NCBI RefSeq assembly: GCF_030684315.1 | Contig: NC_081388.1 | Location: forward strand, 16,600,093-16,664,092 | Direction: 5' to 3' | DNA: 64,000 nt | From: Stegostoma tigrinum | Lineage: Eukaryota | Program-made: the position numbers and the translations under genes | In this document: in pieces, positions 1,936 to 56,388 of the stretch | Layout of the letters: each line of letters starts with the position of its first letter | Numbering within the stretch: the first letter of the stretch is position 1 | Notes under the pieces: model-generated | The model's database searches: none | Seen by the model: only the letters and a program-made list of their open reading frames with translations | What the model was told of the DNA's origin: nothing

Positions 1936-2141
1936 GTGATAATGGGAACTGCAGATGCTGGAGAATCCAAGGTAGTAAAATGTGAGGCTGGATGACCACA
2001 GCAGGCCAAGCAGCATCTCAGGAGCACAAAATCTGACGTTTCGGGCTGACGTTTCATCTGATGAAGGGTCTAGGCCCGAAACGTCAGCTTTTGTGCTCCT
2101 GAGATGCTGCTGGGCCTGCTGTGTTCATCCAGCCTCACATT
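1936..2141. mobile_element. Palindromic non-autonomous Penelope-derived mini-element with hammerhead core
   Basis: 69-bp inverted arms (1978-2046 / 2074-2142, 3 mismatches); 15-bp TSD TCAGTATATTTTGCA at 1921-1935 and 2142-2156. Confidence 0.85.
2057..2086 (+). ncRNA. Minimal type I hammerhead ribozyme motif (Penelope type)
   Basis: CTGATGA-A-GGGT(CTAG)GCCC-GAAA-CGTC; core intact, stem I weak. Confidence 0.6.
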
Positions 2142-2288
2142 TCAGTATATTTTGCACTCCTGTATGCAGTGGTATAAGGGAGGGAGTGATGTGAGCTACA
2201 TCCGTAGGTTGTGCTGCACTGCAAAATAATAACTTTTATTTTTGGAATTCAAGTATCCCTGCTTTTTCCCCTTTTTAACCACACCCAG

Positions 2289-2373
2289 AGCCAGCCACTG
2301 CAACAAAATTTCCAATGGATTACCTTGAAAGAGTGAAGAAAGTTCATTCAGAGGGCGGATATGGATCCCTGGG
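2289..2373 (+). CDS. FARSA: FARSA internal exon
   Basis: cccag|...|gtaagt; [29 protein letters not shown]. Confidence 0.95.
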
Positions 2374-3769
2374 GTAAGTCTGCACTAATCACTTCAGCTA
2401 ATTTGGCAAATGCAAGTTCTCTGTTTGTCTTTGTGCAGTGTTGTTCAGGAATAATGTACAGTAAAGAGCTTTTTATATTTGGATTTGTTCATATTTTGAC
2501 CAGTACCACTGAAAATAAACTGTACCTTCCATCCCTTTGCCTTTTGTGTAAGTTTGTGCTAAGCAGATTGGCTCCCATGTTTCCCATTTGACAGTGAACA
2601 AGTTTTTGAAGAAGCTTGTCTGTCTTGCAGCTTGTGATGGTCTGATAAAGGCACAGTCATTTGGCATCTTGTGGAGAGGATGTTTAAATTTCAGGAACTG
2701 CCTGATGACAGACTGTAATATTAATTTGTCTGTTCTCCCCTCAGCTGCAGACTGACCTATGTGTTTGGAGTGTGTTATGTTTATGTAGATGATGTGGTTG
2801 GCTGCGTTGGGATAGAGGCAGGATTGGGAGCAGAGGTGAGGAGAAAGTGCCCTGGAGAGGGGACGTATAGGAGTGGGAGAATAATTAAATGCAGGATGGA
2901 GGAGGGAAGTGGGCAAATTTGATCGGGGAGGAGAAAATTCGGTGTGATGGCTTTGGTGGGGGAATTGGCTGTGCTGCTGTGGGGAAAGGTGAGGTTGATA
3001 GGGTGCACAAGGGCATGGGTTGGTATTTGCATGTCATGGTGATTTGAGGTTGGTGCACTGGCAAGTGGGAGGCGTAGCTGAGCAGGATGGGGAGAACTCT
3101 GGGCTGGATTAGGTTGTGCAGAGCCTTTGGTTTTCTGTGCTGGGCACAGGATTGGCCTTGTGTGTACTGGCATGGATGAGGGAGTTGGGAGCACTAGCAT
3201 TTGTAGAAAGGGCATTATGCATTCACGGCTTCTCTCGGGTGGTGCGCAGAGTGGAGACATTTTTGTGTATATACGATGGGCATTTGACTTTTCAGATGCA
3301 GAGATGGGTTTGTGCCTCACAGCGTGGGTTTAGTCCCTGTCCGTGATCAAACCTCACAGTCTGTACTTGAGTTGGCCTTTTTTTTCAACCAAGTAAATCA
3401 TCAGAATTGTCCAATGGTCCACCTGCGCTCACTGCAGTTTAAAGAATTCCTTTGTAATCTCTTGGGTGAAAGTCCAGGAGGAGTGATTTAGTTCCAATTC
3501 AGGATGATCTGTAACGTGAATTTGTAGGTAGTGGTGTTCCTGCTCAGTTTGTCTGACCTTGGTTTAGAAAGTGCTGTCAAAGGAACCTTGTCGTAGAGTG
3601 TCACATCAATGCTTCACACTGCTGCTGCCATGCTCCAGTAGTGGTGGGAAAGAGAATGATTGAATCATTTTTGAAACTATTTCTAAAACAAGTGTGCTGC
3701 ATTTAAAGCCATGCAAATGTTGGAGTCTTTAGTTCTTTGTTTTCAGCAACTATTTGTGTACATATCCAG

Positions 3770-3869
3770 ATACAAATATGACTGGAAGATTGAGGAAGCA
3801 CAGAAGAATCTCTTGCGAACGCACACAACAGCAGTCAGTGCACGAATGCTGTACAAACTTGCCCAAAAG
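3770..3869 (+). CDS. FARSA: FARSA internal exon
   Basis: tccag|...|gtgagg; [33 protein letters not shown] (LLRTHTT motif). Confidence 0.97.
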
Positions 3870-6062
3870 GTGAGGTTGACTATTTTCTTCCTCCTATCCC
3901 CTTTTGAGGAAGTACCTGCTCAGGTGTTGATTGTTTCCAGTGCTTCACCATGATGGCTACTTTTTCCATGTGTGTCCTCTCCTGAGCCCTCTGTGTTTGC
4001 AATTTACAATAGTGATTGGATGGAGAATCCAAGATCCCATTTGATTTCTGTCCTGCCAGTTTCTTGAGCGCTAAAGTGAGTGTGCCTCATGACAAATGTA
4101 CCAAGGCCAGGGGTCACAGGTCACATCCATAGTTCGGCTATTTTTTTAACCCAAGTAAATAATCAGACAGAACCTCCAAACCTTTAATTTGTCAGTATCT
4201 TTATTAGAGCTGCCAACGATCAGCACAGATTTGTCTGATCTTAGTACTGCTCATACTCATTCATTCTTCTATGACATGTAAAATTGTTTTAAAGTTCATC
4301 AATGGGGATGAAAAGGGAACAGCATATATGCAAAGTGAGATTAGTGGTTGAGTGCCACTTTTAAAAAATGCTACTTTAACATCAGTATATTAAAATGGAG
4401 ATCATTTTCTAACCCCAAGTGTCTGAATGGTGTTGCCATTTCCTGACATGCTTCATAGGTGTTGACAGTCTTTTCATTATTGTCCTGTAGCTGAGGATGT
4501 AAAAAGGTAATGGTTCCATCAGTAAAGTGGTCAGATGGAAGTACCTGCATAACCTTATGAAGATAGTTAATGCAAAATATGCAAGAGGGTGATTTGATGG
4601 AGCATGTTGTCATTATGTAGCCGTTTTTTTTGGCTTATGTCCTGTGCTATAAAATTTGATGCAGGAATTCCCAGCTCTGCAAGCTCCAGTAGTGCTCCCC
4701 CTGCCTAAGGCAGCATGTCCTACCCACAGGGCTGCTTAATGCGTGGTAGAGCTCCTCTCACTACCTCCCTAAACTGTTTTGAGATATTTGTCAGAATGAC
4801 AGTGGGGTACTGTTTAATTCCATCCCTAGCCAGCTGGTGAAATACAAAACTAGATGCTATGATGGCATCCTGCTGTTCCCAGAGAACTTGACAATCTGTG
4901 ATTTTTGTTTTCCACAATTTGGCAGACTGCACATGTGCAGTGCACACCTTTGCTCCAAGAAGTAAGTTATGTTTTATTCTTATCCTTATTTCTTTAAAAC
5001 CACAGATACCCAATCATTAGTTTTTCAGATGACAAGGAGTAACGTTATACAGTAAGCTTTGCAATACGCCCTCCTAACTATTGCCTGGTATCCCAACAAT
5101 GTCCTATTATACTGTTTTTATTGGCATCTTTGTTATTTTGGATGAGACCAATTAACCCACATTAAAGGAGTGCTTTCTGATTAGTTTAATGGGACACTGT
5201 ATCAAGGAAAGTCCAGAGGAGGCCTATTAAGTTTTAAAATAAAACTTTTGGTTTTGATACACTGTAGTCTCAGAAGGTCCACAGAGTACCACTGAACACC
5301 ACGTGCTCCCTCTCCACAGACATGCACACGCAACCACAGGAGAAGGCAGGCAGTCCGGTATTGCCACCCATTCTAGGACCCAATTGCTGATCCTGTCAGG
5401 CCCAGGACCATCATCTGTTACTATTTTTAAATACGAATTTTAAACCTTTTAAAGAGGCTTGGTGACAAAGGTCAAATCACTAGTGAAAGTTGCAAAATTA
5501 AAATTGAAGCTTGGTTGTGGAATATTTTAAATAGTCAGTTAATTAGCAATGAAACCAATTTAAGCCAAATCAGGAGTATATCCATGTTTCAAATACTTAA
5601 CGGAATCATACCTTTGCTTGTCAATTACATTGTCAAGATAAGTAACCAATTAACAGGCATTTGAGAGTATAGGGATTCTTTCACATGGGATGTCGTGGAA
5701 CACTGAAGTCAGTGGTCCCTGGTATGGACTGTTGCCATTCCCAGGTCCTGACATGTGGTTCTGTTTTTCATGTGCTGGGTTAGCAGGGTGTTGTGAATTA
5801 ACTGTATGGAACTCTCATGTTAATTTGTTCATGCATTTGGGAGACCTATGCGAAGGTGGTATTAAATAGATCTTTTTGGAGATCAGTCATTTATTTTTAA
5901 CATAGTGGTCGAAGGAATGATGTGGAGCACAAAAGAAAATGATGCTGTGCGGCCTTTATGCTTTGCACAGCATGATGTCCAAAGCTGCTCTCTCTCTTTC
6001 CTGTCCTGCTCCTTTCCAATGTGATCACGTTTTCTGTAACTGTTTTCATTCTAACTGTGCAG

Positions 6063-6231
6063 GAAGAGTTTACACCCGTGAAGTATTTCTCTATTGACCG
6101 AGTCTTCCGTAATGAAACACTGGATGCTACTCACTTGGCAGAGTTTCACCAAATTGAGGGGGTGGTAGCAGATTATGATCTGACCCTGGGCGATCTGATG
6201 GGAGTTCTCCAACAGTTCTTCAGTAAACTTG
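6063..6231 (+). CDS. FARSA: FARSA internal exon (class II motif 2)
   Basis: tgcag|...|gtgaga; [56 protein letters not shown]. Confidence 0.98.
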
Positions 6232-7173: not shown

Positions 7174-7251
7174 GTATAACCAAACTGCGTTATAAGCCAG
7201 CCTTCAACCCCTACACAGAACCTAGTATGGAGATCTTCAGCTATCATGAAG
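7174..7251 (+). CDS. FARSA: FARSA internal exon
   Basis: gacag|...|gtaagt; [26 protein letters not shown]. Confidence 0.97.
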
Positions 7252-8349
7252 GTAAGTGTGAAGATCTGATTTAGATCTTCAGCAGTTCAAGGTTCCTACT
7301 CTTTATTCACCTTCAATGGCAGTGTTGCCTTTGTTACAGCCATTTTGTACATACGGGAATATGAATTAGAAGCAGGAATTAACCCTTTTCACCTGCTCTA
7401 TTACACTGATTGTGGCCTGAACTTCATTTCCCCAATTGGCCTTAATTCCCTAATCTACCTATACTTCTGTATTTAAAAGTGTTCAATGACCTTGCCACCT
7501 CTATTCTGGCGAAGAGAATTCCACATTACTGTGACTCAGAAAGAAAAATAGTCCTCTTCATCTGTCTTAAATGGGAGACTCTTTATTTTTAAACTGTCTC
7601 CTTTTGCTGTAGCCTGCCCAACAAGGGGAAGCAGCCACCCTGTCAAAGTCTTCCAGATTATTCTTCAATTAAATTACTTCAAAATGCAAATTTGTAAAAG
7701 CCTGAACTGTCCAGCCTTTCCTCATAAGATACTACACATCAGCTCAATCCCAGGTAGGAGTCAAGTGAATACTCTCTGAGCTGCTTCTAATACATTTTCA
7801 TCCTTCCATAAATAAGGAGATCAACACCATACACAACACTTGAGGTATAGTTTCAAATGCTGTGGAACTGTAATGAAACATCCCCACTCGTGTTTTATAT
7901 TCCCTTTTTGTAATTGTGCACAACAAAGTTCATGAATAGTGAATGAATTCACAACACTTAACCAGTTCTTGATCAATGGACAAATAGGCAGTGGATACTA
8001 GGAGCTTTGCCCACTTGGGGAACACTTGTCTATGGACACATGCATTTGGCTCAGCGGGCAGGCAGTTGTAGCCTAGGTTTAACATTTCAACTTCAGCACT
8101 TCCACAATTGCAGCACTCCCTCACTACTACCCTAATGTGGTAGATTACATGCCCAAATCTGTAGTGTCACTTGAACTTGCAGCCTTCTGACTCAAGAAAT
8201 GACTGCATCACTGGCAACAACCTAATGCTTAGAAGGACTATTGAACTGGAAGGTTAATGATTTCATTCAGTTTTGAATATTGTTGTCAGCTTTTTTAGTC
8301 CATAATTGCATGACCTGTTTGTTTAATCAGAAGTTCATGTATATAATTA

Positions 8350-8700
8350 CAACAAAATACTGCAGATGCTGCTGATCAGAAAGATAAACAAATTCCTAGA
8401 GAAAATCAACAGATCTGACACCATCTAAAGCATGAAAAACAGTTAATGCTTCAAGTCCCGTATCATTGGACTCAATGTTAACTCCTCCCCCTTTCCATCT
8501 TCACTCCCTCCCTCTTCCCTTCCCACGCTCCTCCCTTCCTCCCTCACATCCACTTTCATCCCTGTCTCCCTCGCATCCACTTTCCTCCTTCCTACCGTCT
8601 GTCCCCCCCCCCCCCCACCCCTCACCTCCTTCCCTCCCTCCCTCCACAAGTGCTACCAGGCTTGAGTTTCTCAAGCAGCTTGTTTCAATTTGGCTCCACT
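8350..8700. mobile_element. Decayed palindromic Penelope-derived mini-element with an internal polypyrimidine expansion (8484-8645)
   Basis: aacaaaatactgcagatgct...gttaatgcttcaagtc left arm; gactcaatgttaactc...gagtttctc right arm. Confidence 0.55.
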
Positions 8701-9216
8701 TGCTGACATACAGGAGCATGAACATGTACATTAGCAGCAATATGTCTCATTAAATATATTTAAGCAAAGAATGGTGTGTACCTAACAAAAAGAAATGTTG
8801 GCATATATTGGGTAAGAAAGTGTTACAGCAGAATTTTTATTTTAATTTTTAAAAATATGCCTGGTATGCTCATGTGCAGTCACAATTCAGCAGTGAACAT
8901 GCTGAGTCTGCACGTCATATCGTTGCTGTCAGCAAACTTACTGTTTTTGTTTTTAACCCTTGCATTCACTCCTTCAAGTTGCCTTTGCCAATCCCATGCT
9001 CTGAACAGATTTTGTAGCTTTCTTTTTGATACTGCAATACTTGCAAAAACATTCCAAACCACATTCCAAATCCTCTAGCTAATGAACAGGCTGGCTTAGG
9101 TGGCACCCCTTCTTCTAATTTGTCCTTAATGAATTCTTCTCAACTTCGAGTACTCATTGTTCACTTGCAGGGGTCACAGGGTCTCATGCTGATTTAAAGA
9201 AATGTTCTTTCTCCAG

Positions 9217-15394: not shown

Positions 15395-15526
15395 TCAGAG
15401 ATAGTAGGAACTGCCAATGCTGGAGAATCTGAGATAACACGGTGTGAAGCTGGATGAACACAGCAGGCCAAGCAGCATCAGAGGAGCAGGAAAGTTTGAC
15501 GTTTCGGGTCAAGACCCTTCTTCAGA
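15395..15526 (-). mobile_element. Penelope-derived mini-element with hammerhead core
   Basis: 12-bp TSD AAGGTATTTGGT (15383-15394, 15527-15538); - strand TTT-CTGAAGA-A-GGGT(CTTG)ACCC-GAAA-CGTC-AAA. Confidence 0.85.
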
Positions 15527-16259: not shown

Positions 16260-16433
16260 ATATGGGACTAGATTAATTTGATGTCTGGTTGTCATGGACA
16301 AGTCGGACCAAAGGGTAAGTTTCCATGCTGTACAGCTCTATGACTCTATCTTGGGTTGTGCTTTATAAAATTTCCAGTGTGTTATCTTCCCAATGACTTT
16401 TGCCTTCATCTCGATCTCAATCAACACAAAAAG

Positions 16434-16530
16434 TGAAGGGTCTAGGCCCGAAATGTCAGCTTTCCTGCTCCTCTGGTGCTGCTTGGCCTGCTGTGTTCAT
16501 CCAGCTGTGCACCTTCTTATCATAGAATAT
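16434..16530 (+). mobile_element. Truncated Penelope-derived mini-element
   Basis: tgaagggtctaggcccgaaatgtcagctttcctgctcc...gtgttcatccagc. Confidence 0.75.
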
Positions 16531-16580
16531 CCGAGATCTGAGTTTAAATTTTGCAGTTTTTTTTTATTATTGCTTTCCAG

Positions 16581-22371: not shown

Positions 22372-22664
22372 TAATTTGAAAACAAGATGCTGTAAAAACA
22401 CAGCAAGTTTGCAGCAAATAGTGGAGACAACAACCTAGTTCACGTTTTGGAGAAAAGCTCTATTCGACTTGAAACATTAACTCTCGTTTCTGTCTCCCCA
22501 AATGCTGCTGAATTGCTCTAGCCCTTCTGATTTATCCCCACATCCACAGCGTTTTATTTAAAGTATGAAACTGCTTTACAGCTTTGTGGCCAGTAGGACT
22601 GAGGGTTATTCTCAACAAATAATTGAGTATAGCTGATCATCGGTCGCATTGCTTGAATGTTGCA

Positions 22665-23650
22665 CTGTGCTAGAAGAACGATATCTCATTTTCCACTTGG
22701 GGGCCCTGCAGCCCTCAGGACTCAATATTCAGTTTAATGCTTTTGCAGCCTGAACATCTTGTTCTATGCCCTATATCCACTTACACGCCCAGCAATGACA
22801 TGGGCCACTTTCAGCACAGTCAGTCCAATCTCACCCACTCATGGTCCCCATTGTCAGCTTTTCTCCTTCCCTATTAACTATGCATCATCATCTTGTCCAC
22901 CTAACTCCTTCTCTCTCAAACAATAAAACAGAAGTTGTTGGAAAATCTCAGCAGATTTGGCAGCATCTGTGAAGGAAAAAGACAAGAGTTAACGTTTCGT
23001 GTTCAGTGACCCTTCCTCAGAACTGATGGTGGCTGGGAAAATGTCAGTTTATATGCAGAAAATAGGGAGGTAGGTGGGGGAGGGAGTAAACAATAGAGCC
23101 TTAAGAGAGAGGAAGACAGTTGGACAGAAAAAGGAGTTGGTAACAATCAGGCTGGGAGAGTAAATAGTTGTTAATGGGGACAATTAGTGACTTACAACAG
23201 GTATTGTCATGGCAGGCTGTGATAACAAGGTCTGGCTTTTGGTGTGGAGGGTTGGGACATTGGAGAGTTTTGGCCCTAAAATTATTGAACTTGATATCGA
23301 GTCTGGAGGGCTGCAGGGTTCCTAAGCAGAAAATGAAGTTTCAGACCTGCTGAGCTTCTGTGTTTATTTCTGATTTGCAGCATCTGCTGTTCTTTCAGTT
23401 TTTATTCTCTCACAGCCCCCAGCCCTCCACCTCTCCCACACTCTGTCGCTCTAACTCTTGGTTTCTCTTTCTTTGGGATCCATCTCTCCGTTTTCCTCTC
23501 CTCACCCCTGTCTTCAGCAGGTCCACTACCTTTTCCTACCTACTATCAGTCCTGAAGAAGGGTCACTGGCTCAACATGTTAACTCTGCTTTCCCTCCACA
23601 AATGCTGCCAGACCTGCTGAGTGTCCAGAAATTTCAGTTTTTTTGCTGCA
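22665..23650 (+). mobile_element. Penelope-like element 3' end with a second, antisense Penelope 3' end nested inside (22918-23410)
   Basis: + LEERYLIFHLGALQPSGLNIQF (22670-22735); - FIFCLGTLQPSRLDIKF (23337-23287); each is followed by a hammerhead-like terminal repeat. Confidence 0.75.
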
Positions 23651-24300: not shown

Positions 24301-24519
24301 CAAAAACAAATTTGCTGGAAAAGCTCAGCGGGTCTGGCAGCTTCCGTGTAGGACGAAACAGTGAATGTTTTGGGTCCGATGACCCTTTCTGAGAACCCGG
24401 ACCTGAAACATTAACACTGTTTTTTCCTTCGCAGATGCTGCCAGACCCGCTGAGCTTTTCCAGCAACTTTGTTTTTATTCCTGATTTACAGTGTCCGCAA
24501 AGTTTTTCTGGTTTATGTC
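24301..24519. mobile_element. Palindromic Penelope-derived mini-element
   Basis: Inverted arms gctggaaaagctcagcgggtctggcagc / gctgccagacccgctgagcttttccagc; 9-bp TSD TAATTATAA. Confidence 0.8.
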
Positions 24520-25967: not shown

Positions 25968-26966
<999 letters not shown>

Positions 26967-28489
26967 TCAGGGTGAAGGGCGCCGCTGAGAACCGTCCTAC
27001 AGAGTGAAGATTGATGGTGCACCGTTGGTTTGAACCCAGTTTTGCTTCATATTTGTAAGCATGTTAAAGCTTCTGACCCCCTTCTCCCAGTCCCAAAGCC
27101 TATATTCTGCGCAGCTTTCACTGCCTGGGAACGTTCAGCTGGCTGTTAGCGGCAGCAGGCTGTGTATCGAGACTTAACTGGAGCTGTTCCCTCCAACAGA
27201 TCCTTCTCTGACACTGGTGCCAGAACAGCGCTTTGTCTACCGAGCTGCTAAAGTTCGACTGTTCATCAGCAAATCACATCAATCCTGGGCGGTCCTTAAA
27301 CCTGTCCCATTTTTGGGGAGGCAAAGACACGATAAAGTGAAATATCGAGGGGGATAAAGGGACGGAATCAGAAAACCGAAGACGCAAAAAACCTTTAAAA
27401 AAAGAGGGAAATTGTGTACTGAGCACAATGCAGGGAAAGAGACAGCCAGAAAGGGAGGACAAAGAGGTCGTCAGCTGAACGAAGCTAAATGCTGAAAAGT
27501 CTTTCTTTTTACGCAGTAACAACAGAAAGTGCTGGAGAAACTCGGCAGGTCGGGCGCAGAGAGAAAGCAGGGTTAATGTTTCGAGTCATTGCGTTGAAAT
27601 TCGTGCCTTGTATCCGGCTAACACCGTCATTTCTATGTTCCCCACGTCCGACCTCTGACTGGGGTGTGTAACCAAGATGTTTCAGCAGAGAGGAGGCAGT
27701 CCTGTGGAGTGGACTGTTATCCATTACATGCGAATCAATTCCTCATGAATTTCCAAACGCTAATCTTCCAGGTGGGTTTAGGAAGCTTGGCTGAGAGCTC
27801 CCGTCAGACTGTCCAGCGGGGGGCACTCCGGCTCATTGTTCTGTCCTTGCCTGACTCTAATGTTCGATATTATTACTCCCTGATATTTACAGCATCTCCC
27901 TTGGGACCAGGTATTCTCGCACCCTATTTTACTTTAACTGATTTTTCTTTTGTTAAATCCAATTCTTCAAAGAAGACAATTTGAGCCGGATAAAAGCAAA
28001 GTGCCGAAACTTTAAAAATAGACACAGAGAAAGCTGGAGAAACCCAGTAAATTCTGGCAGCACCTGTGGAGAGAGTGAAAAAACAGAGTTAATGGTTCGA
28101 GTCCAGTGGTTTCTTCAGAACTGTCTTGGAAATAGAATCGGGCTCACCTCCATTGTCATTCTTTAATTAACCCTTTTTGGTCACTCACTGAGTTTATTAT
28201 AACACAGCAGGAATCCCAGATCCCGAACTGGGGTTAAAATATGTTTAAAATTAGAATTAACACGGAGACATTAAACTAGATGCGAGTTTCAGTCCGACAA
28301 GGTGCTTTTCTAGAGACCCAGAGCCTCCAGTGTGGTACTGGGGAAATGCCCATAGATGTACAATCCTTTGGGTGAGATGTTAAACTGAGGCTCTGTTGAA
28401 TCCAGGTAGAGGGGACTGCCTCACTTTTAGACCCTCACTCCTGCTTCAGGTGTTAGTGAGAGAAGTAGTATCAGATACAGAATTTATAA

Positions 28490-29008
28490 GTAGAAAATCA
28501 AAGGGTCACACCACTGATGAGGATCTATTAAACAAACCTAAGATGCTGGTAAATCTTTAATCAGTTACGTTTTAATTGATTAATATGTTTATGTAAATCC
28601 CCGAATTAATTTCAAGTCACTGCCCTGAGAGAACTAAGGGTTTTATCAGTGTAAAGAGGAGGTACGTTTTAGACCAGACAACACCTGTTAGGTGTGAAGC
28701 CTTGTTTAGAATCTGTTTGTGTTTTGGTTTCAAGTCTAGACTGTTATTATTTCTGAAGTGGGAATTTATAAAATGTCACATTGACCGACTGTCTATAAAT
28801 TGTGTGTTTTTTGAACAAAACAAAATGTATCTGCAAATACAAATTCACACCATAGATTTACATTTGTGTGGTGGGGGGGTATAGAGAGTGAGTATTTGTA
28901 TATGGGGTAGGAGAGGGTGCGTGTGTGTGTGTGAGAGAGAGAGAATGTGTGTGTTTATCTGTGCGGGAGAGAGTGTGTCTGAGTGAGGGGGAGAGAGAGA
29001 GAGAGAAA

Positions 29009-29063
<55 letters not shown>

Positions 29064-30430: not shown

Positions 30431-31461
30431 TTGTGGATCTTTGCTCCATATTTCAACTGCCTGGTGGATAATAGCAGTGCCAGCTAAACATAATGTCTTG
30501 CTTATAAAACTCTTGTGAAATGTGATGAACTGTTGCATGAATGCAATGTCAAATTAAGGTGCAGGAACTTTACAATTCTGGTGCTGCTTTGTTATAAATT
30601 AGGTGAAAACCATCTGTCCAATAGCTCATTATTATTCAGCTCACTTTGTTTTGAAAACCCCATCTGTCCAGGCCATGTGTCGTCTGCAGAATATAATCCA
30701 GGTTGCCATTCTTAATGCAGCGCTGAAGGAACCTTGCACTCTCAGAGGTGCACATTTTGAGATGAGGTGATAAACAGAGATCCGAGTTGCCCTTTCAGGT
30801 GACCAAACAATCCCATGGGAGGCAGATGGTGCTGTAGTGGATGTGTCACTGGGCTGGTAATCGAGGGATTCCAGACTAAACGCTATGGGGCCATGGGTTC
30901 GAATCGCCCCCAAAGAAGATAGTGGAGTTTTAAATTCAATCAGTGCAATTTGTGGATTTTTGTTTTGCCATTGAAAGCTGTTGTTGCCAAAACTTTGAAT
31001 GTTTTCAAGAAGGAATCATAGTTCTTAGGTCTAAAGAGATCAAAGGATATAGGGAGAAAGTGGGAAGAGTACTAAGTTAGTTGATCAGCCATAATCAATA
31101 TGAATGGCAGAGCAGTGTCAAAGGGCCGAATGGCCTACTCCTGCTCCTAGTTTCTGTATTTCTAAAAGTAATTATGACCACGATACTATCATCGATTGTT
31201 GTAAAAACCAAGTGGGCCACAAATGCCCTTCAGAGAAGGACATCTGCCATCTTTATCCAGTCTGGTCTACATGTAACTCCAAACCCCAGTAATGTGGTTG
31301 ACTCTAAACTGTCCCCTGATGTGGCTGAGCAAATCATTCAGTTTAAGAGCAATTAGGGATGAGCAATAAATGTTGGCCTTGTCAGTGATACCATTATCCC
31401 AGGATTTAAGAAAAGGTATTGCAAAGAAGGGCAGGGGTGTCTCCTAGATGTCCTGTAGGTA

Positions 31462-31702: not shown

Positions 31703-32814
31703 CTTTTGTAGCTGGCTACTTGCTGTACACTAATTGGCTGCCACATGTTCTACATCATAGTAACTACACTTCAGAACATGCTTATTGACTGTAAAGGATC
31801 TTTGACATGTTCATTGATTGTAAATGGTGCTACATAAATTCGTTGTCTTATCCGCATTCAGAATGATGACACCGAAGGCTGTGGAGGCCAGGTCATTGGG
31901 TACATTTAAGACTGAGATAGATATGTTCTTGGTTATCAAGGGGATCAAGGTTTATAGGGAGAAAGCAGGAGAATGGGGATGAGGAACTTATCAGCCATGA
32001 TTGGATGGTGGAGCAGACTCGATGGGTCGAATGGCCTAATTTCTGCTCCTATGTCTTATGGTCTTACAGCTGCTGAGAAACCTGGCCCAATGTTAGGGCA
32101 ACATGCTCTGTGTTGAGTTCAGTTTCCATTGTGTTCCGTCATTCACTTTGTCACTGGGAACTCAGCTGATTTGATCTTGAGTTCTGAAACTGAAAAAAAT
32201 GAAACATTCATTTACATAGGATGTTACATTCTCAAACCACCAAAGCCTGTTTCAAATCTCATTCTCACTGAAGTGCAGTGACTGTTACAGTGTAGCATCT
32301 AGTTTGTACGCAGCAGGGTCCCAGAGACAATGAGGTAAGTGACAAATTAACCTGTTGACAGTGGAGATCGTTAGGGAATGAAATGTTGGTCAGGATGTTA
32401 GGAGCACTCCTTGCTCTTTTTATAGGGCCATCTGACCAAACTAATAGGCTCTCAGTTTAATGTTTCACTTGCAAGGTCGTGCCTCTGACAATGCATCACT
32501 TTTCTGCTCTAAAGTATCAGCCCAGCTGGCATGTTTGAGGTTAGGTGAAGAGTGTGTGATAACCAGCTGAGGCCGTGGAAGGTGCTTTACAACTCAAGCT
32601 TGTTATCTTGGCATGGGTCCTCACTTAACCAGGTCTTCACCTTTAACGGAGATGGCAAGGTGTGGAGCTGGATGAATGCAGCAGGCCAAGCAGCATCAGA
32701 GGAGCAGGAAGGCTGATGTTTCGGGCCTAGACCATTTGGGCCAACGTATTTTCACCAGGTGAGGAAGGGAGAATGGCACATATTCTATCAGTGTGTCACA
32801 GGCATTGCCTGTTC

Positions 32815-33504: not shown

Positions 33505-33518
33505 GTTACCATGGCAAT
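33505..33518. promoter_or_regulatory. RFX X-box-like palindrome
   Basis: GTTACCATGGCAAT, 13/14 match to GTTACCATGGCAAC. Confidence 0.4.
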
Positions 33519-41014: not shown

Positions 41015-42925
41015 TCTTGGAAGCTTTGGAAGAATATCCGGAATGTAGAGCGAATCTGAAATGACGAATTAAGAGAGCTAAAAGGGGACATGAGATATCT
41101 TTAGCAAACTTGGTTAAGGAAAAGCCCAAAGCCTATTATTCATATATAAAGAGCAAGAGGGTAACTACAGAAAGGATTGGCCCACTTAAGGACAAAGAAG
41201 GAAAGTTATGCGCTGAGTCAGAGAAAATGCGTGGCATTCTTAACGAGTACAATGCATCGGTATTCACCAGGGAGAAGGACATGATGGATGTTGAGGTTAG
41301 GGACAGATGTTTGATTACTCAAGGTCAAATTGGTATAAAGGCATTAAGGTGGACAACTCCCCAGGTCCAGATGGGATCTATCCCAGGTTGTTGAGGAAAG
41401 TGAGAGAGGAAATAGCCGGGGCCTTAACAGATATCTTTGCCGCATCCTTAAACACAGATGAAGTCCCGGAGGACTGGAGAATTGATAATGTTGTCCCCTT
41501 GTTTAAGAAGGGCAGCAAGGATAATCCAGGTAATTATGGACCGGTGAGCCTGACATCAGTGGTAGGGAAGATGCTGGAGAAGATACTGAGGGATAGGATC
41601 TATTCCCATTTGGAAGAAAATAGGCTTATCGGTGATAGACAACATGGTTTTGTACAGGGAAGGTCATGTCTTACCAACTTAATAGAATTCTTTGAGGACG
41701 TGACAAAGTTGATTGATGAGGGAAGGGCTGTAGATGTCATATTCATGGACTTCAGTAAGGCGTTTGATAAGGTTCCCCATGGCTGGCTGATGGAGAAAGT
41801 GAAGTCACATGGGGTCCAGGGTGTGCTAGCTAGATGGATAAAAGACTGGCTAGGCAACAGGAGACAGAGAGTAGTAGTGGATGGGGGTTTCTCAAATTGG
41901 AGACCTGTGACCAGTGGTGTTCCACAGGGATCTGTGCTGGCACCCCTATTGTTTGTGATATATGTAAATGATCTGGAGGAAGGTGTAGGTGGTCTGATTA
42001 GCAAGTTTGCAGATGACACTAAGATTGGTGGAGTAGCAGATAGTGAAGGGGACTGTCAGAGATTACAGCAGAATATAGATAGAGGAGAGTTGGGCAGGTA
42101 AATGGCAGGTAGAGTTCAATCCGGACAAATGCGAGGTGATGCATTTTGGAAGATCTGATTCAAGAGCAAACTATACAGTAAATGGAAAAGTCCCAGGGTA
42201 AATTGATGAACAGAGAGATCTGGGTGTTCAGGTCCATTGTTCCCTGAAGGTGGCAATGCAGGTCAATAGAGTGATCAAGAAGGCATATGGCATGCTTTCC
42301 TTCATTGGGCGGGGTATTGAGTACAAGAGTTGGCAGGTCATGTTACAGTTGTATAAGACTTTGGTTCAGCCACGTTTGGAGTACTGTCTACAGTTCTAGT
42401 TACCACATTACCAAAAGGCTGTGGATGCTTTGAAGAGGGTGCAGAGGAGGTTCACCAGGATGTTGCCTGGAATGGACGGCGCTAGCCATGATGAAAGGTT
42501 GAGGAGATTAGGATTATTTTCATTAGGAAGACGGAGATTGAGGGGGGACCTGATTGAGGTCTACAAAATCATGAGGGGTATAGACAAGGTGGATAGCAAG
42601 AAGCTCTTTCCCAGAGTGGGGGACTCAATTACTAGGGGTCATGTGTTCAAAGTGAGAGGAGGGAAGTTTAAGGGAGATATGTGTGGAAAGTTCTTTACGC
42701 AGAGGGTGATGGGTGCCTGGAACGTGTTGCCAGCGGAGGTGGTAGACGCAGACACGATAGTGTCTTTTAAGGTGTATCTGGACAGGTACATGGATGGGCA
42801 GGGAGCAAAGGGCTACAGGCCCTTAGAAAATAGATTTAGACAGAGGATCTCAATTGATGCAGGCTTGGAGGGCCGAAGGGCCTGTTCCTGTGCTGTAACT
42901 TTCTTTGTTCTTTGGTCTTTGTTCT
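41015..42925 (+). mobile_element. 5'-truncated CR1-type LINE (RT domain), frameshifted
   Basis: [41 protein letters not shown]; tail ttctttgttctttg. Confidence 0.97.
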
Positions 42926-44356
42926 CCTCTGATGCTGCCTGACCTGCTATGTTCCTCCAGTTCCACAAAGTATTTTCTATCTTGCCCTCTATTCTTTGTA
43001 GCCTGAAGGAAACAATGCCATTACTGAAGATTGCTCGTTCTCCTGCATATCTCCATCAGGACATGATGAGAATGCCACATTTCTGGACATCTGTCTTCAA
43101 GGAGCCGTTGAATTTGAGCACATGACTACTTTAGGGTTTTCTCATTATTCATACATAACCACAAGTCCATTCAATCTGAAATGGGCTCTGATGAGTGCTT
43201 CAAGTCCAGATATTTCTTGGAAAATTTTGCAGGCCTATATGTAAAGAGCAGAAGAACAAATTGGATGATTGCTCAAGTACAATGGGCTGAATAGCCTCCT
43301 GTTCTCTATCAATTTCTGATTCAATGTCTTGCAGATATACAGGTGCACCTTAATTTTATTTATGAACATCTTGCATCACCTTCATTCACTCTGTGTTTCT
43401 GGTGTTGACAGATAAAATATGAAAACCAAGGGTTAATAAGAACCTTATGTGAAACCTCAGTAACTACATAGAGTGCTGAATTGGGTTCCATGCTGTAGGA
43501 AAATAAAGGCTTTAGAAAGGGCATAATGTAGACAAATGGGGATACTGTCTCGGAGAAGGAAAGATAACCATTAAATATGTTTTGAAAAATTGAAGCTTTT
43601 TCCTCTCGAAGAACACAAGTTGCAGAGTGGTATGTCAGAGTCATTCAATATGTAAATAGACCCTTCGTCCTGTCAGTCCATGATAAACTAAACTAGTTCC
43701 ACTTACCTTGGCCCATATCCCTCCAAACCTTTCTTATTCATATACTTATCCAAATGTCTTTTCAACGTTGTGACTGTCCTTGCATCTACTGCTTCCTCTG
43801 GAAGTTCATTCCACACACAAACCACACTCTCTGTGTAAAAAAAGTTGCCCCTATGATAGAAATGACATGATAGAAAAGATGGAACAGACTGTTTCTAGTT
43901 GTTGCAACTAGGTTGTAAAGAGAGGAAGCCATAAACATTAAATTAAGTAAATTAGATTTAAAACAGAGGGCAGGAAGAAATACTTTACATACTGAGTTGC
44001 TGGATTAATTTCCCAGTCAGCCCCAGTGGCAAATGCTAGACCTCCTTCCTGCAAAGGTCAACCCAGAGATGTGAGAAACAGAATGACTCCAGCCTAACAC
44101 TGTACTGAGAAAGCGCTATCGGAGGTGCTGCCATTCAAATTATTAAACTGAGGCTTTCCCTTCTCAAGTGGACATGCAAGATCCTGCAGGCACTCTTTCA
44201 TGAAAGAGTTACCACAGATTATCTGGCCACTATCAAATTGTTGCTTGCCGTGCCCAAATTGGCAGTCACATTTCCTACATTATGATAGTGAGTCTGAGAG
44301 TGCCACCAGATATGTTTGATTTGATTTATTATTGTCACAGTACAGTGAAAAGTTTT

Positions 44357-44534
44357 CAGAGATAATGGGAACTGCAGATGCTGGAGAAACCAAGATAAAG
44401 TGTGGGGCTGGATGAACACAGCAGGCTGAGCAGCATGTTAGGAGCACAAAAGCTGATGTTTCAGGCCTAGACCCTTCATCAGAAAACAGTTTTTCTGATG
44501 TGCCTGCTGTGTTCATCCAGCCCCACTGTTGTCT
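44357..44534. mobile_element. Partly palindromic Penelope-derived mini-element
   Basis: 16-bp TSD TACA(G/C)TGAAAAGTTTT (44341-44356, 44535-44550); same family as 1936-2141. Confidence 0.85.
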
Positions 44535-48444: not shown

Positions 48445-48965
48445 GCAAATTACCACAGATGTTGCAATCTGAACTGAAAACAAAAAGTGCTGGAGATCAC
48501 AGCAGGTCAGGCAGCATCCGTGGAGAGAGAGCAAGCTAACATTTCTAGTCTAGATGACTTTTCATCACAGGCAAAGTGAAGTGAGGAGGGAGTAGAATTT
48601 ATGCAATAGTTGGAGTTTTGGAGTTCTTTCCAATTTGGCAGTTGGACACACCATTGTTCTGCCACAAGTTGCAAGAACTTCAGATGCTGGAGTCAGAGAT
48701 AACAAAATGTGGAGCTGGAGGAATACAGCAGGCCAAGCAGCATCAGAGAAGCAGGGAAGTTAATGTTTCAGGTCGGGACCCTTCTTCAGAAATTTCTGCC
48801 GTTGTCCCATTCCGATCTCTTAATTTGGACTATCAACATCCCTTCTCACCCAACACTCCAAACCCCTCATTGACTATTGCATTAAATGTTGCCTCCTCCA
48901 CACTTCACATCAGCTCTGATAAAGAGTCCGAAATGTTAGTTTGCCTTCTGTCCGTGAACGCAGAA
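48445..48965. mobile_element. Older palindromic Penelope-derived element with a nested mini-element (48664-48793)
   Basis: Outer arms end in ...tcatcacag / cagctctgataaagagtccgaaatgttag; inner copy flanked by 7-bp TSD TTCTGCC. Confidence 0.7.
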
Positions 48966-51690
48966 CTGTATGACCCACTGAAGAGGATGAAGATTCAGAC
49001 AAAGGGTACTGCGGGTCTGAATCCTTCAGACTGAGAATATATATATGAAACATCGTAAATTTTACAATTAGTCTGAGACACCTTGGAATGCAACATGCTC
49101 ACTGGAAGAAACGTATATTTTATTAGCATTTTCCATAATGTCCAATTTGGAAAGTACTTTAAGACTTTTTAAAAAATTATCTGATATTTTTTCTAATCAA
49201 CCTGTTCAGAAGTAGGACTGGAGTAGGTGTGGCTTGAACCCAGGCCTCCCAGCCCAGGGATAGGGAGACTACCACTATGGCACAAGAACGCTCCATAATT
49301 TGTTTTTATTTAACGTGTTTTTCTAATTAACCTGTACAGAAGTGTTAATACACACCTCTGGAGTAGGTGTGGCTTGAACTCAGGCCTCCCGGTGCAGGCC
49401 GAGGGACTATTGTCTTTCTTTGCAAAAACAAACCTCTCCAAAAAGGTGCTGAGGCCAAAAATCAATTTCAGACTGCGATCCATCAGACCACAAGACAAAC
49501 AAGCAGAAGATGGCCATTCAGCCTATCAAAACTACGCTGCCATTCAATGCGATTTTATCTGAAAATCTCCAACTTCCTGCCTTTTCCCCATAACCCTTGA
49601 TTCCCTTATTGATTAAAAATCAATCTATTTCAGCCTTGTATATTCTTAATGAGCCAACCTCTGTAGCCTTTGTAGTAAAGAATTTCACTATCCTCTGAGC
49701 GAAAAATTTTCTCTTCATCTTCATCCTCAGTGATGATTCTGCTCTTGCTACTCACACCATCCCTGGACGCATCTGTTATTTCTTCAGTTAGTTGATTACC
49801 ACTCTCCTTTACAAACATACAAACAAGCATCCAACAGTAGGCCACTCAGACCTTCAAGCCCACTGGTCCAATCAATATGATCATGGCTAAACTGAATTTA
49901 ATCTCAACTTCTACATTCCTGTATTCCTGAAAATCTTTTGTTCCCTTGGAAATGTAGAATCTACTGACCTATACCTTAAAAATGTTTAAAGATTCTGCTT
50001 CCACTGCCTTTTGAGGAAGAGAATTCCAAACACTCACAGCACTCTGAGAGAAAAGAAATCTCTGACTTAAATGGGCATTCTCTTATTTTTAAACAATGAT
50101 CCTTAATTCTAGATTCTCCCACAAGAAGAAACATCCTTTCCACATTCACCTGGTCAAATCCACTCAGGATCTTTTATGTTTCAATCAAAGCACTTCAAAC
50201 TGTTCTGTTCTCTCCAGAGGATACAGGCTTAGCCTGTCTAGCCTTTCCTCTGAAGGCAATCCACTCATTCCGGGACACCAAAATTTCTTTTTCAGTAATT
50301 TTAATGTCTTCCTGTTTATCTTGTACCAGACTCCTTGTTCTTCCTCCCTCCCTTACTAGCTAAATAGCTGTAAGTCTCTTTTTCTGAAGCTCTTGACAAA
50401 AACATATCAGCCTCTAGCTCTTGTCCACCCTCCCAAGGTCTTTGTGTAAACTCATGTCCATTCTTGTCCATCAAGTCCAGGACTCCAGCAACATGATGCA
50501 CAGCAATAAGTGGTTTGGGATGGGATTGTTGGACAAAGAGGTTAAAGTAATATGCAGAAGTCGTAAGGGTGGAGTAAGGAGTAGCCACATAGGAGTTAGG
50601 GTCTGGAATGCACTGCCTGGATGCGTGAAGGCAGGTTCATTCAAGAGGGGCACTGGATGGTTATTTGGATAAAAATAAGGTGTGAGGCTAGGGGGCAAAA
50701 AGCAGGAGACTGGTATGAGGTAATGATGCTTATTTAATAAGGTGCAGGTGCAATGGCCAAATGGTCTCTTTCTGCACAGTAATGCTTCTGCAATGAAGCT
50801 AAGAGGCAATAACACTGACACCTTTCAGTTGGTCTTAATCCTTTGGAGAGCTCACAGACACCAACTCACAAAGAGGTTACAGGTCATAATGGGTTACTTG
50901 ATTTGCTGTGAGCATTTACACCATTTCCTGCTTTTGTTTCAGATTTCCAGCATCCACAGTGGTTCTCTGAAGGCACTGCTATTCTCTAAAGTAAATAGTC
51001 TCTCATTCATGGCTTTGTGAACAGGTTGGGGAAGATGACCAATGGTCATGTGAACCAACCATCGTTGTTAAGTCAGCACCTTTAAAGCTGGGGGCGGGGC
51101 TTGGGTGGGACAGGCAGGCAAAATAAAACTGCATTGTATGACCTGCTTATAAGCCAGTGAGTGCCACATTTAAAAAAAGGTGGAGATGTTGTTTATAAAC
51201 TGTTAAAGAACATGAAGGAGAGGAATTTCTTCTCTCTGAGGACAGTGAATCCGTGGAATTCTTTACTGCAGAGGGCTGTCGAGGCTGGGTCATTAACTCA
51301 ATTCAAGGTTGAGATAACAGATTATTTAATCAGTAAGGGAATAAAGGGTAATGAGAAAAAGGCAGGAAAGTAGAGCTGAGGATTGTCAGATCAGCCATGA
51401 TTTTATTGTTTGGTGGAGCAGACTTGATAGGCTGAATGGCCTAATTCCGCTCCTTTGATGGGTTTATATTGTGTTAATTCTCCCAGATGTTATTGCCTTG
51501 AGAGCCAGTGCACCATGTATCCTGTAACTTGATTGTGAGTTAGTGTTTGTGAACTCTGCAAACGATTAAGACAATCAGAAGGTTTCAGAGCTGTAGCTGC
51601 TCCCTAGCTCTCTGTAGTAATGTACCTTGTGTTGTTGTTCCTGAATATGATGGATCAGATTTGGTTCATATAAGAGATGCCTTTTGGTTT

Positions 51691-51913
51691 TAAAACCAAA
51701 ACAACTGCGGATGCTGTAAATCAGGAACTAAAACAAAGTTGCTGGAAAAGCTCAGCAGGTCTGGCAGCATCTGTGGAGGAGAAAACAGAGCTAACATTTT
51801 GGGTCCAGTGAGTTCTGATGAAGAGTCACTGGACCTGAAACATTAACTCTGCTTTCTCCTGCACAGATGCTGCCAGACCTGCTGAGCTTTTCCAGCAACT
51901 TTGTTTTTGTTTT
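51691..51913. mobile_element. Palindromic Penelope-derived mini-element with a decayed hammerhead
   Basis: About 82-bp inverted arms; 14-bp TSD ATGCCTTTTGGTTT; GAGTT-CTGATGA-A-GAGTC(ACTG)GACCT-GAAA-CATT-AACTC. Confidence 0.88.
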
Positions 51914-54178: not shown

Positions 54179-55302
54179 AATGAAATGTCATAACATTCAA
54201 GACTATGGGCCCAGTGCTGGCTGCAAAGTGGGACTGGTGTAGATTTAGAGTAGTTTTTGTCAGTGTAAGCTTGATGGACCAAAGGGTCTTTTCTGTACAG
54301 TGTGATTCTATAGTAAATGCATCTATTTTTTCATTGTCTTCAAGATGGAGGGAATCAACACTTTGCATATTAAAAAGACGATATTTAACAAATTTAAATT
54401 CTATAAAGTAATGTAAGGTAGCTAAGCTGAATATATATCTCAGCTCACTGCCAATGTTGCTCACATTGTCAAATAGCCCATTCCCCCTGGTGGCTTAATG
54501 CTGCAGTTGCAGTGACTTGCAGAACCCAGCACATCCACTCAGGCAGAATTGTTCTGGAAACTTCCATCTAGCAGCGTGACACAGGATCTTCACAGACTAT
54601 TGATTGGCAGAGACGCAAAAGAAAAAGAGAATCATTCACCTTGTATTTCTGTGACACATCTTGCTGTATAAGCATGGAAAAGTGATCAGATTGTAATGAA
54701 GGGAGGGAAACTGTTACTCTGAAGTGAAGCTCAATAGTGGCTCTTTAGAATATGAAGTTTAAATACTCAAATAAAATTTAATATCTATTGACAGAGCCAC
54801 ATCTTGCCTCATGCGGATGCATTGTAGAGACAGGTCAATCATCAGTAATGCCATTTTTTCAACAGTTGAGCCTATTTCCATTAGTGTTCATTTTTGCTAC
54901 CTCAACTGTTGACATGTTTCCCAGTACAAATGGTCACGGATGGTCTTTTTGTCGAAACATAGTGCAATTTTGATTTAGTCATTCAGTCAGCGGATAAGGA
55001 TAGCATTTATTCCCCCTGAAAAGGTGGTGAGCTGCCTTTTCGAACTGTTGCTTTCCAGGTGATGGGCTAGTATTTTACATATGCTTGGCTATTTTAGAGA
55101 GTAGGCACAGGAGTAGGCAATTCAGCCCGTTGAGACTGCCCCACTATTCAATACAGTCATGGCTAATCAAACACATCTATGCCTTTTACCCACCCTATCC
55201 CTTTAACTCTCTATGCCATTTTAAGGTTTCAGCAAACCTCCATTTGTAGCTCAGGTTGTGGGTGAGGGAATCAACTTTCTCACCGTGCTGGTTTATTTTC
55301 GT

Positions 55303-55342
55303 TCAGACGTTTCGTCACCACGCTAGGTAACATCATCAGTGA
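55303..55342 (-). ncRNA. Minimal type I hammerhead ribozyme motif
   Basis: TCA-CTGATGA-T-GTTACC(TAGCGT)GGTGAC-GAAA-CGTC-TGA; stems I and II pair, GUC site. Confidence 0.72.
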
Positions 55343-55418
55343 GGCCTGTGATGAAGCGATGTTGTTCTACTCTGCTTAAAATTTATACTGACCAGTCTAT
55401 TATGCTTCATTGGAGGCC

Positions 55419-55458
55419 TCACTGATGATATTACCTACCATGGTGGTGAAACGTCTGA
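55419..55458 (+). ncRNA. Minimal type I hammerhead ribozyme motif
   Basis: TCA-CTGATGA-T-ATTACC(TACCAT)GGTGGT-GAAA-CGTC-TGA. Confidence 0.65.
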
Positions 55459-56246
55459 ACAAAAATAAGCCAGCTCGCTGAGCAAGTCAACAACCTCTTT
55501 ATGCCATTGCAAATTAGAAATCTATCAATTGCTACCTTAAGTATACATAAAGACTGAGCTTCCACAGCCCTCAGGTTTGAGAATTTGAAATGTTGTAAAT
55601 CCTCTGAAATGAAAAGAACTCCTCATCTTGGATTTAAGTTGCAATCCCTCTTATTGTTAAATTGTACCCTCTGGTTCTAGACTCTTCAGAAAGGGGAAAC
55701 CGCTTACCCTGTCTATCACTTTTAAGTGTTTCGTAAGTTTCAATGTAATCGCCTATCATTTTTCAAATCTCTAGAGAATATCAGCCCAGTGCGCCAATCT
55801 CTTTTCATAGGATAGTCCTTCCATCCTGGGAACAAGACTGGTAAACCTTCATTGCACTCTGTCTATGGCAATCATCTCTTTCCTGAGATAAAGTGACCAA
55901 AACTGCACATGTTACTCCAGGAAAGGGCTCATGTAATCGTAGTTGGATACACAGAAGAGTAATTACATTTCTTCCTGAAAGTGTAATATGAAAAATATCT
56001 ATTATTAATGTTTTTAAGATTGGTGAGTGGGATATTAAACTGAGGACCTAACTGTTGTCTCAGTACATGTAAGATTCCTGCAAAATTTAGAATAGAAGGT
56101 GAACGATTATTCTGCTCAATATTTAGCCCTCAACCAACATCACAAAAACAGCTTATCTGGTCATAATCGCATTGCCATTAAAGGCAGCTTGATCCATGCA
56201 AATTGACTACTGAATTTCCTGCATTGGGACAGTAATGAACAATGTT

Positions 56247-56388
56247 CACAGTTCTGGAGCAAGGTCACTGGACTCAATGTTAACTCTGTTCCTCTCTCCA
56301 CAGATACTGCCAGACGTGCAGAGCTTCTTTTCAATTTCTGTTTTGTTTGTTTCAGATCTCCAGCATCCACAATTTATTGTTTTGTTTA
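56247..56388 (+). mobile_element. Single-arm Penelope-derived mini-element (other decayed copies near 1062-1170, 22375-22560, 27515-27590, 27985-28125, 32655-32735, 42925-42975, 58215-58330)
   Basis: cagttctg...ggtcactggactcaatgttaactctg...ttcagatctccagcatcc. Confidence 0.7.

Follow-up and report, generated by a model that had tools for sequence, protein, structure and literature searches.

What kind of element leaves short, often palindromic repeats with remnants of a hammerhead ribozyme at some 20 places in one stretch of shark DNA, and how are such copies made? The question is raised by a window of 64,000 nucleotides (nt) from Stegostoma tigrinum (assembly GCF_030684315.1, contig NC_081388.1, positions 16,600,093 to 16,664,092, forward strand), which is analysed here as a whole and in its own numbering. 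An earlier note had described at least 15 such repeats in three families and read them as non-autonomous, Penelope-derived elements mobilised in trans. The short repeats are genuine stubs of Penelope-type retroelements, and these shark insertions with minimal hammerheads are further examples of a documented insertion pattern of Penelope-like elements (PLEs). To this published pattern is added a pile-up of 5′ ends beside the ribozyme core, with TATAAA 29-31 nt upstream of a start or initiator-like site at three unrelated ends, and a run-off origin of the short copies at the 5′ end of a PLE mRNA is the reading that we favour by a little.

Insertions with a fixed 5′ end

Searches with blastn and with profiles built from the window copies returned ~20 loci, for which the density of about one per 4 kb given previously is fair or slightly low, and the arms of families A, B and C together occupy ~3,500 of the 64,000 bases. 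Families A and B proved to be homologous (profile cross matches down to E 2e-16) and C is a single copy with no similarity to A/B by blastn. All seven elements reported to carry their own target duplications were found at the coordinates given by the earlier note, and that claim holds in full: direct repeats of 15, 12, 9, 16 (one mismatch), 7, 14 and 14 (one mismatch) base pairs (bp) flank the elements at 1936, 15395, 24301, 44357, 48664, 51691 and 55221, respectively, while among 400 control spans placed at random, exact repeats reached at least 7 bp 9 times, at least 9 bp twice and at least 11 bp never. Of 11 further loci, 8 showed nothing above this control, those at 42917 and 48456 were borderline with uncertain boundaries, and only that of a long B copy termed Y was credible; around a second long B copy, termed X, no flanking duplication was detected.

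Contigs of four public runs were aligned to window positions 1000-2700 at 82% likeness. One contig of run X12 (organism B) aligns at 1742-1935 and again at 2168-2700, with 27 letters between the two blocks vs 232 in the window. The 206-bp element at 1936..2141 is thus absent at the orthologous site of this run, an absence that a deletion in organism B could also have produced.

Seen in the hammerhead-sense orientation, the core lies at the 5′ end of the arms, and the layout consists of a terminal repeat, a head-to-head inverted arm, a tail of 33-46 nt on one arm and a duplication of 7-16 bp. Counted from C3 of the core, the 3′ ends fall into two classes, at +119 to +131 and at +73 to +102, and the palindromes hold one arm of each class, with tails of 43, 42, 33, 46 and 36 nt in five of the six aligned pairs. 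The centres of the palindromes vary between window copies and across the genome, which argues that palindromes are formed anew at each insertion; a short symmetric junction joins the head-to-head arms at 44486-44494, and the C copy has an unpaired centre of 46 nt. Most copies had been credited with an inverted second arm, a claim that stands for 5/7 of the duplication-flanked copies but not overall, where such an arm is clear at 5/20 loci, weak but confirmed at one and indicated by profile matches at two more (at most eight), one of the two profile-derived arms being circular evidence as it was in the profile's training set.

This layout is the same as that published for PLE insertions, in which inverted pseudo-long terminal repeats (pLTRs), a 31-bp tail on one arm, duplications of 8-10 bp and a putative TATA box with initiator were reported (PMC3846280), and in which 5′ truncation, an inverted copy and a 30-40 bp tail were named as characteristic (PMC8557442). 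Insertions of endonuclease-bearing (EN+) PLEs in these two sources likewise display the head-to-head repeat, one-arm tail, duplications, TATA/initiator and insertion into existing PLE copies. The window copies differ in that the open reading frame (ORF) and usually the promoter are absent, the insertion measures 130-270 bp and tails extend to 46 nt, and neither source, in its available text, mentions 5′ ends fixed at the initiator. Two cases of nested copies were observed, Y within X (22452-23650) and the 48664 copy between B arms (48445-48980), in agreement with the reported insertion into existing copies.

The 5′ ends were tabulated for 25 A/B arms, of which 11 begin downstream of C3, 4 reach at least 55 nt upstream and 10 stop at -1 to -6, with none in between; among the 14 arms that reach the core, therefore, 10 end within the 1-6 nt preceding it, for which a model of constant truncation gives P values of 8e-7 to 4e-11. 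The short copies lack the upstream TATA box of the longer ones, and upstream of the core the short B arms agree with Y over the final 3-5 letters and no more. At three unrelated ends, TATAAA stands 29 nt (Y), 30 nt (C) and 31 nt (a PLE of another lineage) upstream of a short-copy start or an initiator-like site: before the A of TCAGTT at -4 in Y, before the start point of the short arm in the long arm of C, and before the A of TCACT in the PLE at 28420-30460, where TCACT lies 8 nt before a hammerhead remnant. The background for a TATAAA-type box is 547 of 127,920 positions (0.43%), and the spacing between TATA box and start, like the initiator consensus, is a matter of general knowledge. A splice acceptor at the CAG before the B core, as in D. 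virilis, was considered and rejected, as the short copies keep the CAG, the sequence upstream of it is unrelated (identity 0.1-0.3) and the TATA box is 29 nt away. That pLTRs typically contain a promoter and start site has been noted (PMC6765202).

In family B, the 5′ strand of stem I coincides exactly with the 4 nt that separate C3 from the putative start, from which it may be speculated that cleavage would remove the cap. Among the contigs, 1,400 loose ends of run X1 (organism A) fall at 2057, the 5′ edge of an A arm, and agree poorly with each other (0.37), and 11/15 of the joints listed rejoin at 2057 from varied positions. For family A, a C-rich upstream form appears among the loose ends of three runs (agreement 0.41-0.69). 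As a separate observation, loose flanks before the long 3′ end (1934) are rich in A, and in each of the four runs (agreement 0.39-0.48) they finish with ATTGT(A/T)T, possibly reflecting a target preference or continued template.

The hammerhead core and a very probable Penelope origin

The reading of the A/B consensus as a minimal type I hammerhead is supported by the features of the core. The boxes CUGANGA and GAAA with U16.1-H17 are recognisable in the A/B majority sequence and in C; the extra nucleotide after A9, the G10.1-C11.1 pair and a helix II of at least 4 bp are present (the 55422 arm of C closes with A-U), and the palindromic ACGU (15.1-16.1) that replaces helix III occurs in 5 exact copies. 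These traits fit the minimal hammerhead ribozymes of metazoan PLEs, for which a type I core, an extra nucleotide after A9, G10.1-C11.1, a palindromic 15.2-16.2, no helix III and a short helix I were described (PMC4209133), and the earlier assignment on the palindromic ACGU is borne out. In the best copies of B, stem I measures 4-5 bp, against 3 bp in C and 1-3 bp in family A; helix I is likewise short in the published motifs, yet family A lies below the 4-5 bp reported there. The same source describes mostly single motifs from truncated PLEs with some opposite-strand pairs 100-700 bp apart, an activity that is low and confined to multimers, and 4,000-9,000 motifs per genome in coelacanth and frog, compared with which the density in the window is higher; its available text makes no mention of sharks.

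The set comprises ~20 loci, but few individual copies retain the stem I-CTGANGA-stem II-GAAA-CGTH pattern claimed for at least 15 repeats: CTGANGA...GAAAC[GA]TH is exact in 8 places only, with CGT in 5 of them, and both core boxes together with the first three stem II pairs are kept in 4/14 arms inspected. A hammerhead descriptor run on the window exceeded its shuffles both in strict form (3 matches vs 0 in each of 20 shuffles) and in looser form (8 matches vs a mean of 2.1 and a maximum of 6), whereas the Rfam scan of the window gave no hammerhead family at E up to 5. Pairing across 11 A/B arms reaches 82.5% in the two stems, compared with 15-50% when the partners are slid, and 86.8% of helix II cells are paired. 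Decay is seen foremost at CpG: among 13 arms, by the pattern of the second box, C11.1-G12 is lost in 6 and C15.2-G16.2 in 10. The computed folding energy of palindromic copies is -118 to -150 kcal/mol, and in 4/4 arms the computed hammerhead fold lies 4-10 kcal/mol above the monomer minimum. Most copies are unlikely to be working ribozymes, and raw genomic hammerhead counts from such repeats would mostly tally dead motifs. Relatives sharing the hammerhead pattern numbered 0 in viral contigs and 0 in metagenome contigs, and 19 prokaryote loci were set aside as chance, with only a 21-nt pattern shared, little beyond it and a best score of 19 bits.

A very probable PLE origin, as the earlier note had proposed, is indicated by the fit of tail, inverted arm and duplication to the published insertions (PMC3846280, PMC8557442) and by two B copies that reach a GIY-YIG-like ORF end. 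Upstream of its hammerhead, copy Y holds ~250 nt of pyrimidine-rich sequence preceded by a frame that ends FIFCLGTLQPSRLDIKFNNF, and in copy X the frame end at 22673 reads EERYLIFHLGALQPSGLNIQFN. X and Y are co-linear (ORF end, untranslated region (UTR), hammerhead), and the UTR of X is where Y inserted. Between the two peptides identity is 61%, and both resemble the E..LI..L.T..P.GLN C-terminal end of GIY-YIG domains (PMC8557442 supplement). Because two B copies run upstream into this ORF end, family B would be a PLE terminal repeat and not a separate family. On the features tested, the window copies appear to belong to EN+ PLE insertions with minimal hammerheads, the link to the ORF being made by motif.

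A decayed, ORF-bearing PLE of another lineage occupies 28420..30460 on the minus strand, with reverse transcriptase and GIY-YIG pieces at 30460-29060, a CA/CT microsatellite, and an end carrying TATAAA at 28488, the initiator-like TCACT and the hammerhead-like remnant at 28449. Its pieces at 29060-30460 were recognised by tblastn (E 3e-67 and 9e-71), being 50-68% identical to shark-type proteins, and were not named by Pfam; named relatives of a retroelement protein in the window come from Chiloscyllium punctatum and Heptranchias perlo. Its end is single-copy within the window and differs from those of A, B and C, of which it was rejected as the parent.

How the short copies may arise

On the run-off reading, the inserted sequence would comprise the hammerhead-bearing pLTR and ~70-130 nt behind it, derived from an endonuclease-bearing PLE. 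The TATA box and initiator of the pLTR would start the RNA a few nt (A, B) or ~18 nt (C) before the core, which would place the hammerhead at the very start of the mRNA. A staggered cut, attributed from the literature to the GIY-YIG endonuclease, would leave the duplications of 7-16 bp that are observed, and reverse transcriptase would initiate at either of two internal positions on the RNA separated by 33-46 nt, as the two 3′ end classes suggest; internal priming has been demonstrated for the anole PLE (PMC11167929). With priming ~70-130 nt into the mRNA and a start just before the hammerhead, the enzyme would run off at the capped end after ~130 nt, which would yield unit-length, SINE-sized (short interspersed element) stubs without promoter or TATA box and could account for the observed pile-up. 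Where both cut strands are primed, one per site, the opposed cDNAs would be joined head to head, so that every such insertion yields a palindrome with its own centre and with one of its arms tailed. Since the copies keep the core, the template would be uncleaved RNA; the inserted copies decay in a manner consistent with neutrality, beginning with the CpGs, and a palindromic copy would adopt a long hairpin in place of the hammerhead. The template could have been the ORF-coding mRNA, in cis, or an ORF-less, promoter-bearing pLTR, in trans. That the short units are promoterless run-off copies of the 5′ end of PLE mRNA, primed at two internal sites, is regarded as slightly the better bet, and the run-off step by itself is held to be just as probable.

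A close mechanistic comparison is offered by Poseidon PAc of Anolis carolinensis (PMC11167929). Its RNA serves as substrate in uncleaved form and is primed internally at two sites, which define the tail and of which one lies at 111-118 nt of the ORF; each of the two strands is cut and then extended, and stem II marks where the ORF begins. In family C the ATG has the same position, being made up of A9, the extra U and G10.1, and the distance from this ATG to the end of the long arm is 113 nt (+113, vs priming at +111 to +118 in PAc); no ORF was seen in the window copy of C. Families A and B carry A instead of U as the extra nucleotide and hence have no ATG there. The available text on PAc contains neither start-site mapping nor a discussion of short run-off copies. 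A second comparison is with non-long-terminal-repeat retrozymes, which are non-coding, related to pLTRs, carry a type I hammerhead and include one chondrichthyan example (PMC7229834; bioRxiv 10.64898/2026.07.22.740005). They are defined by head-to-tail tandem units with complete hammerheads (bioRxiv 10.64898/2026.07.22.740005), whereas the window copies are dispersed, single or head-to-head, flanked by duplications and mostly decayed; no dedicated search for tandem repeats accompanied this comparison. In the literature searched, which lay outside Dfam, Repbase, subscription papers and preprint supplements, no description of these shark families or of run-off PLE copies was found.

The most serious competitor, though an unlikely one in our estimate, holds that the repeats are independent non-autonomous families, in which ORF-less masters of ~130 nt or promoter-bearing solo pLTRs are copied in trans by the PLE protein, the fixed 5′ end being the start of the master, by analogy with SINEs on LINEs (long interspersed elements). 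It would explain a very high abundance at fixed length (103,795 contig pieces in X1, with nearly all X1 depth on the element, vs 10,114 in X12, figures that do not express copy number) and, as a lineage-specific burst, the far stronger enrichment of the element's tail region in X1 than in X12; moreover, pLTRs suffice for trans mobilisation in a rotifer (PMC3846280), putative non-autonomous Chlamys PLEs exist (PMC8557442), and a hand count puts the second core box of Y at +27 to +34 relative to the initiator-like A, a possible site for an internal promoter element (Penelope motif, PMC2377424). What speaks against such masters is that two B copies are joined to an ORF end and that the palindromes, with their varying centres, are at least not derived from a master. 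The short copies do not contain the TATA box of the long ones, and an RNA polymerase III (Pol III) A or B box was found in 0/6 arms at one mismatch with the consensus patterns; having neither, the short units look like products and not like masters. The earlier interpretation as non-autonomous families mobilised in trans therefore loses ground, although it is compatible with run-off inasmuch as a promoter-bearing, ORF-less pLTR could supply the RNA in trans. We consider it distinctly improbable that these are ordinary 5′-truncated insertions, in which reverse transcription breaks off on a long tandem RNA and the pile-up stems from pausing, or from joining by microhomology, at the hammerhead: 5′ truncation together with an inverted copy is the standard picture of a PLE insertion (PMC8557442; bioRxiv 10.64898/2026.07.22.740005), 8/25 arms have their start inside the hammerhead, at +4 to +17 from C3, and contigs with long upstream sequence exist (one in run X17, with 254 nt before the family A match), but the sharp stop (-1 to -6) falls immediately beyond the structure and coincides with a TATA box at 29-30 nt in two unrelated families.

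For the palindromes themselves, self-priming on an antisense template, argued for as a hypothesis in PMC3846280, or the fold-back of a single cDNA would suit head-to-head arms with short symmetric junctions such as that at 44486-44494, yet it is very improbable given that the arms end at different fixed sites 33-46 nt apart, fitting two priming events, that the C copy has its 46-nt unpaired centre and that for PAc a sense template suffices for both strands to be cut and extended (PMC11167929). Least credible, and largely refuted, is the proposal that miniature inverted-repeat transposable elements (MITEs) of a DNA transposon, or tRNA-type SINEs, bear an incidental likeness to a hammerhead. The repeats are indeed short, abundant, palindromic and duplication-flanked, Rfam has no hammerhead match and the covariation is not significant; on the other side, the symmetric terminal inverted repeats and fixed duplication of a MITE are not what was found, the duplications ranging over 7-16 bp, most loci being single-armed and paired arms being unequal by a fixed tail, while Pol III boxes were lacking, the same core recurs in the unrelated family C, and the ORF end is linked.

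Several observations weigh against run-off from PLE mRNA. The boundaries of the pile-up were called by hand and its 6-nt interval was picked after looking; the set includes two arms from one insertion and a doubtful one at 1163, and ordinary truncation also occurs (11/25 arms downstream of C3, 4 far upstream). The tail of Y is not measurable, X has no TATA box, the 48445 copy has only CATAAA, the promoter region of family A was not seen, and the start site is read from DNA only, in a group of elements in which Penelope of D. virilis uses a TATA-less internal promoter (PMC2377424). Covariation of the stems, on which the earlier note had placed weight, did not exceed shuffles in 11 arms (49/500 reach the pairing value and 169/500 the double-change value). 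As to the contigs, 5 of the 11 joints at 2057 have 1-5 extra letters and the remaining 6 have unknown letters between, 483 further joints exist besides the 15 listed, 2057 is also the homology limit of the reference used, and contig counts favour copies with unique flanks. Regarding the parent element, the GIY-YIG end motif occurs once in the window vs in 5/60 shuffles and is weak alone, protein searches with the X/Y peptide found no database relative (a weak negative, the query being short), a profile of the other PLE lineage gave no match to it, and an intact autonomous parent of A, B or C was not obtained. One joint among those listed (2028 to 2086, 3 contigs of X1) also rejoins at the predicted cleavage site and could represent rare cleaved-RNA copies or chance; as a general origin, copies starting at the cleavage site were rejected, with 1/15 joints and no cluster of loose ends at 2086 among those listed.

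Individual copies, neighbouring sequence and meaning

Family A includes the palindrome at 1936..2141 (both strands), whose long minus-strand arm (1936-2046) has a 43-nt tail and lacks the first core box, whose short plus-strand arm (2057-2141) holds an intact core at 2058-2085, and whose 15-bp duplication lies at 1921-1935 and 2142-2156. Single minus-strand arms are located at 15395..15526 (intact core 15525-15498, long 3′ end, 12-bp duplication) and at 48664..48793 (decayed core, 7-bp duplication), the latter nested in a larger inverted insertion of family B. The element at 44357..44534 (both strands) combines a long minus-strand arm (44357-44486) bearing a CpG-decayed core with a short inverted arm with an internal deletion, within a 16-bp duplication (one mismatch). 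Further arms are found at 16432..16530 (plus strand, beginning within the core, duplication not found) and 32645..32740 (minus strand, beginning in stem II, duplication not convincing), together with a coreless plus-strand fragment at 42915..42985.

Family B is represented by palindromes on both strands at 24301..24519 (short arm minus, long arm plus with a 42-nt tail, 9-bp duplication, decayed cores) and 51691..51913 (long arm minus with a 33-nt tail, short arm plus from 4 nt before the core at 51815, 14-bp duplication). Copy Y (22919..23404, both strands) sits inside X with a 10-bp duplication (one mismatch); its minus arm (23340-22919) runs from the ORF end (~23340-23270) through the pyrimidine-rich UTR, TATAAA at 23053, the initiator-like TCAGTT and the hammerhead at 23020-22991 to a short 3′ end, and its inverted tailed arm spans ~23336-23404. 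Copy X (22452..23650, plus strand) comprises a decayed arm (22452-22560), the ORF end (22673-22750), a UTR split by Y and a hammerhead at 23552. A subfamily at 48445..48980 (both strands) has inverted arms with cores at 48568 (minus) and 48916 (plus), each reaching ~55 nt further upstream, past a TATA-like CATAAA at -35. Older or decayed material includes a copy at 8349..8715 (both strands; minus arm 8349-8467, decayed plus arm to ~8700), a minus-strand arm at 1058..1170 (a profile match that is also spanned by the orthologous contig of run X12), minus-strand arms at 27510..27590 (beginning in stem II) and 28000..28123 (beginning 5 nt before the core), a coreless plus-strand 3′ fragment with tail at 50895..50970 and a plus-strand arm at 56249..56385 (beginning 5 nt before the core, long 3′ end). 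The family C palindrome at 55221..55494 (both strands) has a minus-strand long arm (core 55339-55306, TATAAA at 55387), a 46-nt tail, a 14-bp duplication (one mismatch) and a plus-strand short arm (core region 55422-55455) that begins 18 nt before the core.

The window contains plus-strand exons of an alpha-type phenylalanyl-tRNA synthetase gene at 2288-2373 and ~6050-6240 (PF01409 match), the first of which the 1936 element precedes by ~150 bp. In runs X17 and X20, contigs cover exon 2288-2373 with an exact match that stops at its borders, the pattern expected of spliced RNA, and both runs contain many family A contigs, which say nothing on strand, start, level or independent transcription. 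LINE reverse transcriptase fragments, presumably CR1-like, lie at 21605-22459, 35208-36848, 41301-42942 and 62300-64000, with 21882-22371 and 36241-36730 being 98% alike in opposite orientation. A 443-codon open frame on the minus strand (39051-40382), composed of 27-nt tandem repeats, has a predicted protein that is E/A/P-rich, then E/K-rich and Cys-tailed, and another minus-strand frame (26430-26966) with a hydrophobic, membrane-span-like stretch is probably an exon of another gene. A dispersed repeat family of ~63 nt (17849, 31462, 31588, 33088, 49317) has no relation to A/B/C, and a 204-nt direct repeat (16056-16259 and 17427-17630, 97% identical, 1,371 nt spacing) flanks the 16432 copy.

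This kind of element being already known, the useful part of the finding is the mechanism. If the fixed 5′ end is the transcription start, the stubs would be by-products of internal priming and not SINE-like families, which would change the annotation of a large share of shark repeats, as the bases counted in this window illustrate, and offer a cheap, testable handle on the role of the PLE hammerhead. The ribozyme would then form the first 35-50 nt of the mRNA, placed for removing its own cap, and for every PLE subfamily the genome would preserve, in fossil form, where transcription starts and where the two priming sites lie. That this strong-stop-like run-off stub is the commonest product of Penelope transposition in sharks, and a very dense one, can be put forward tentatively, as a proposition a little short of an even chance.

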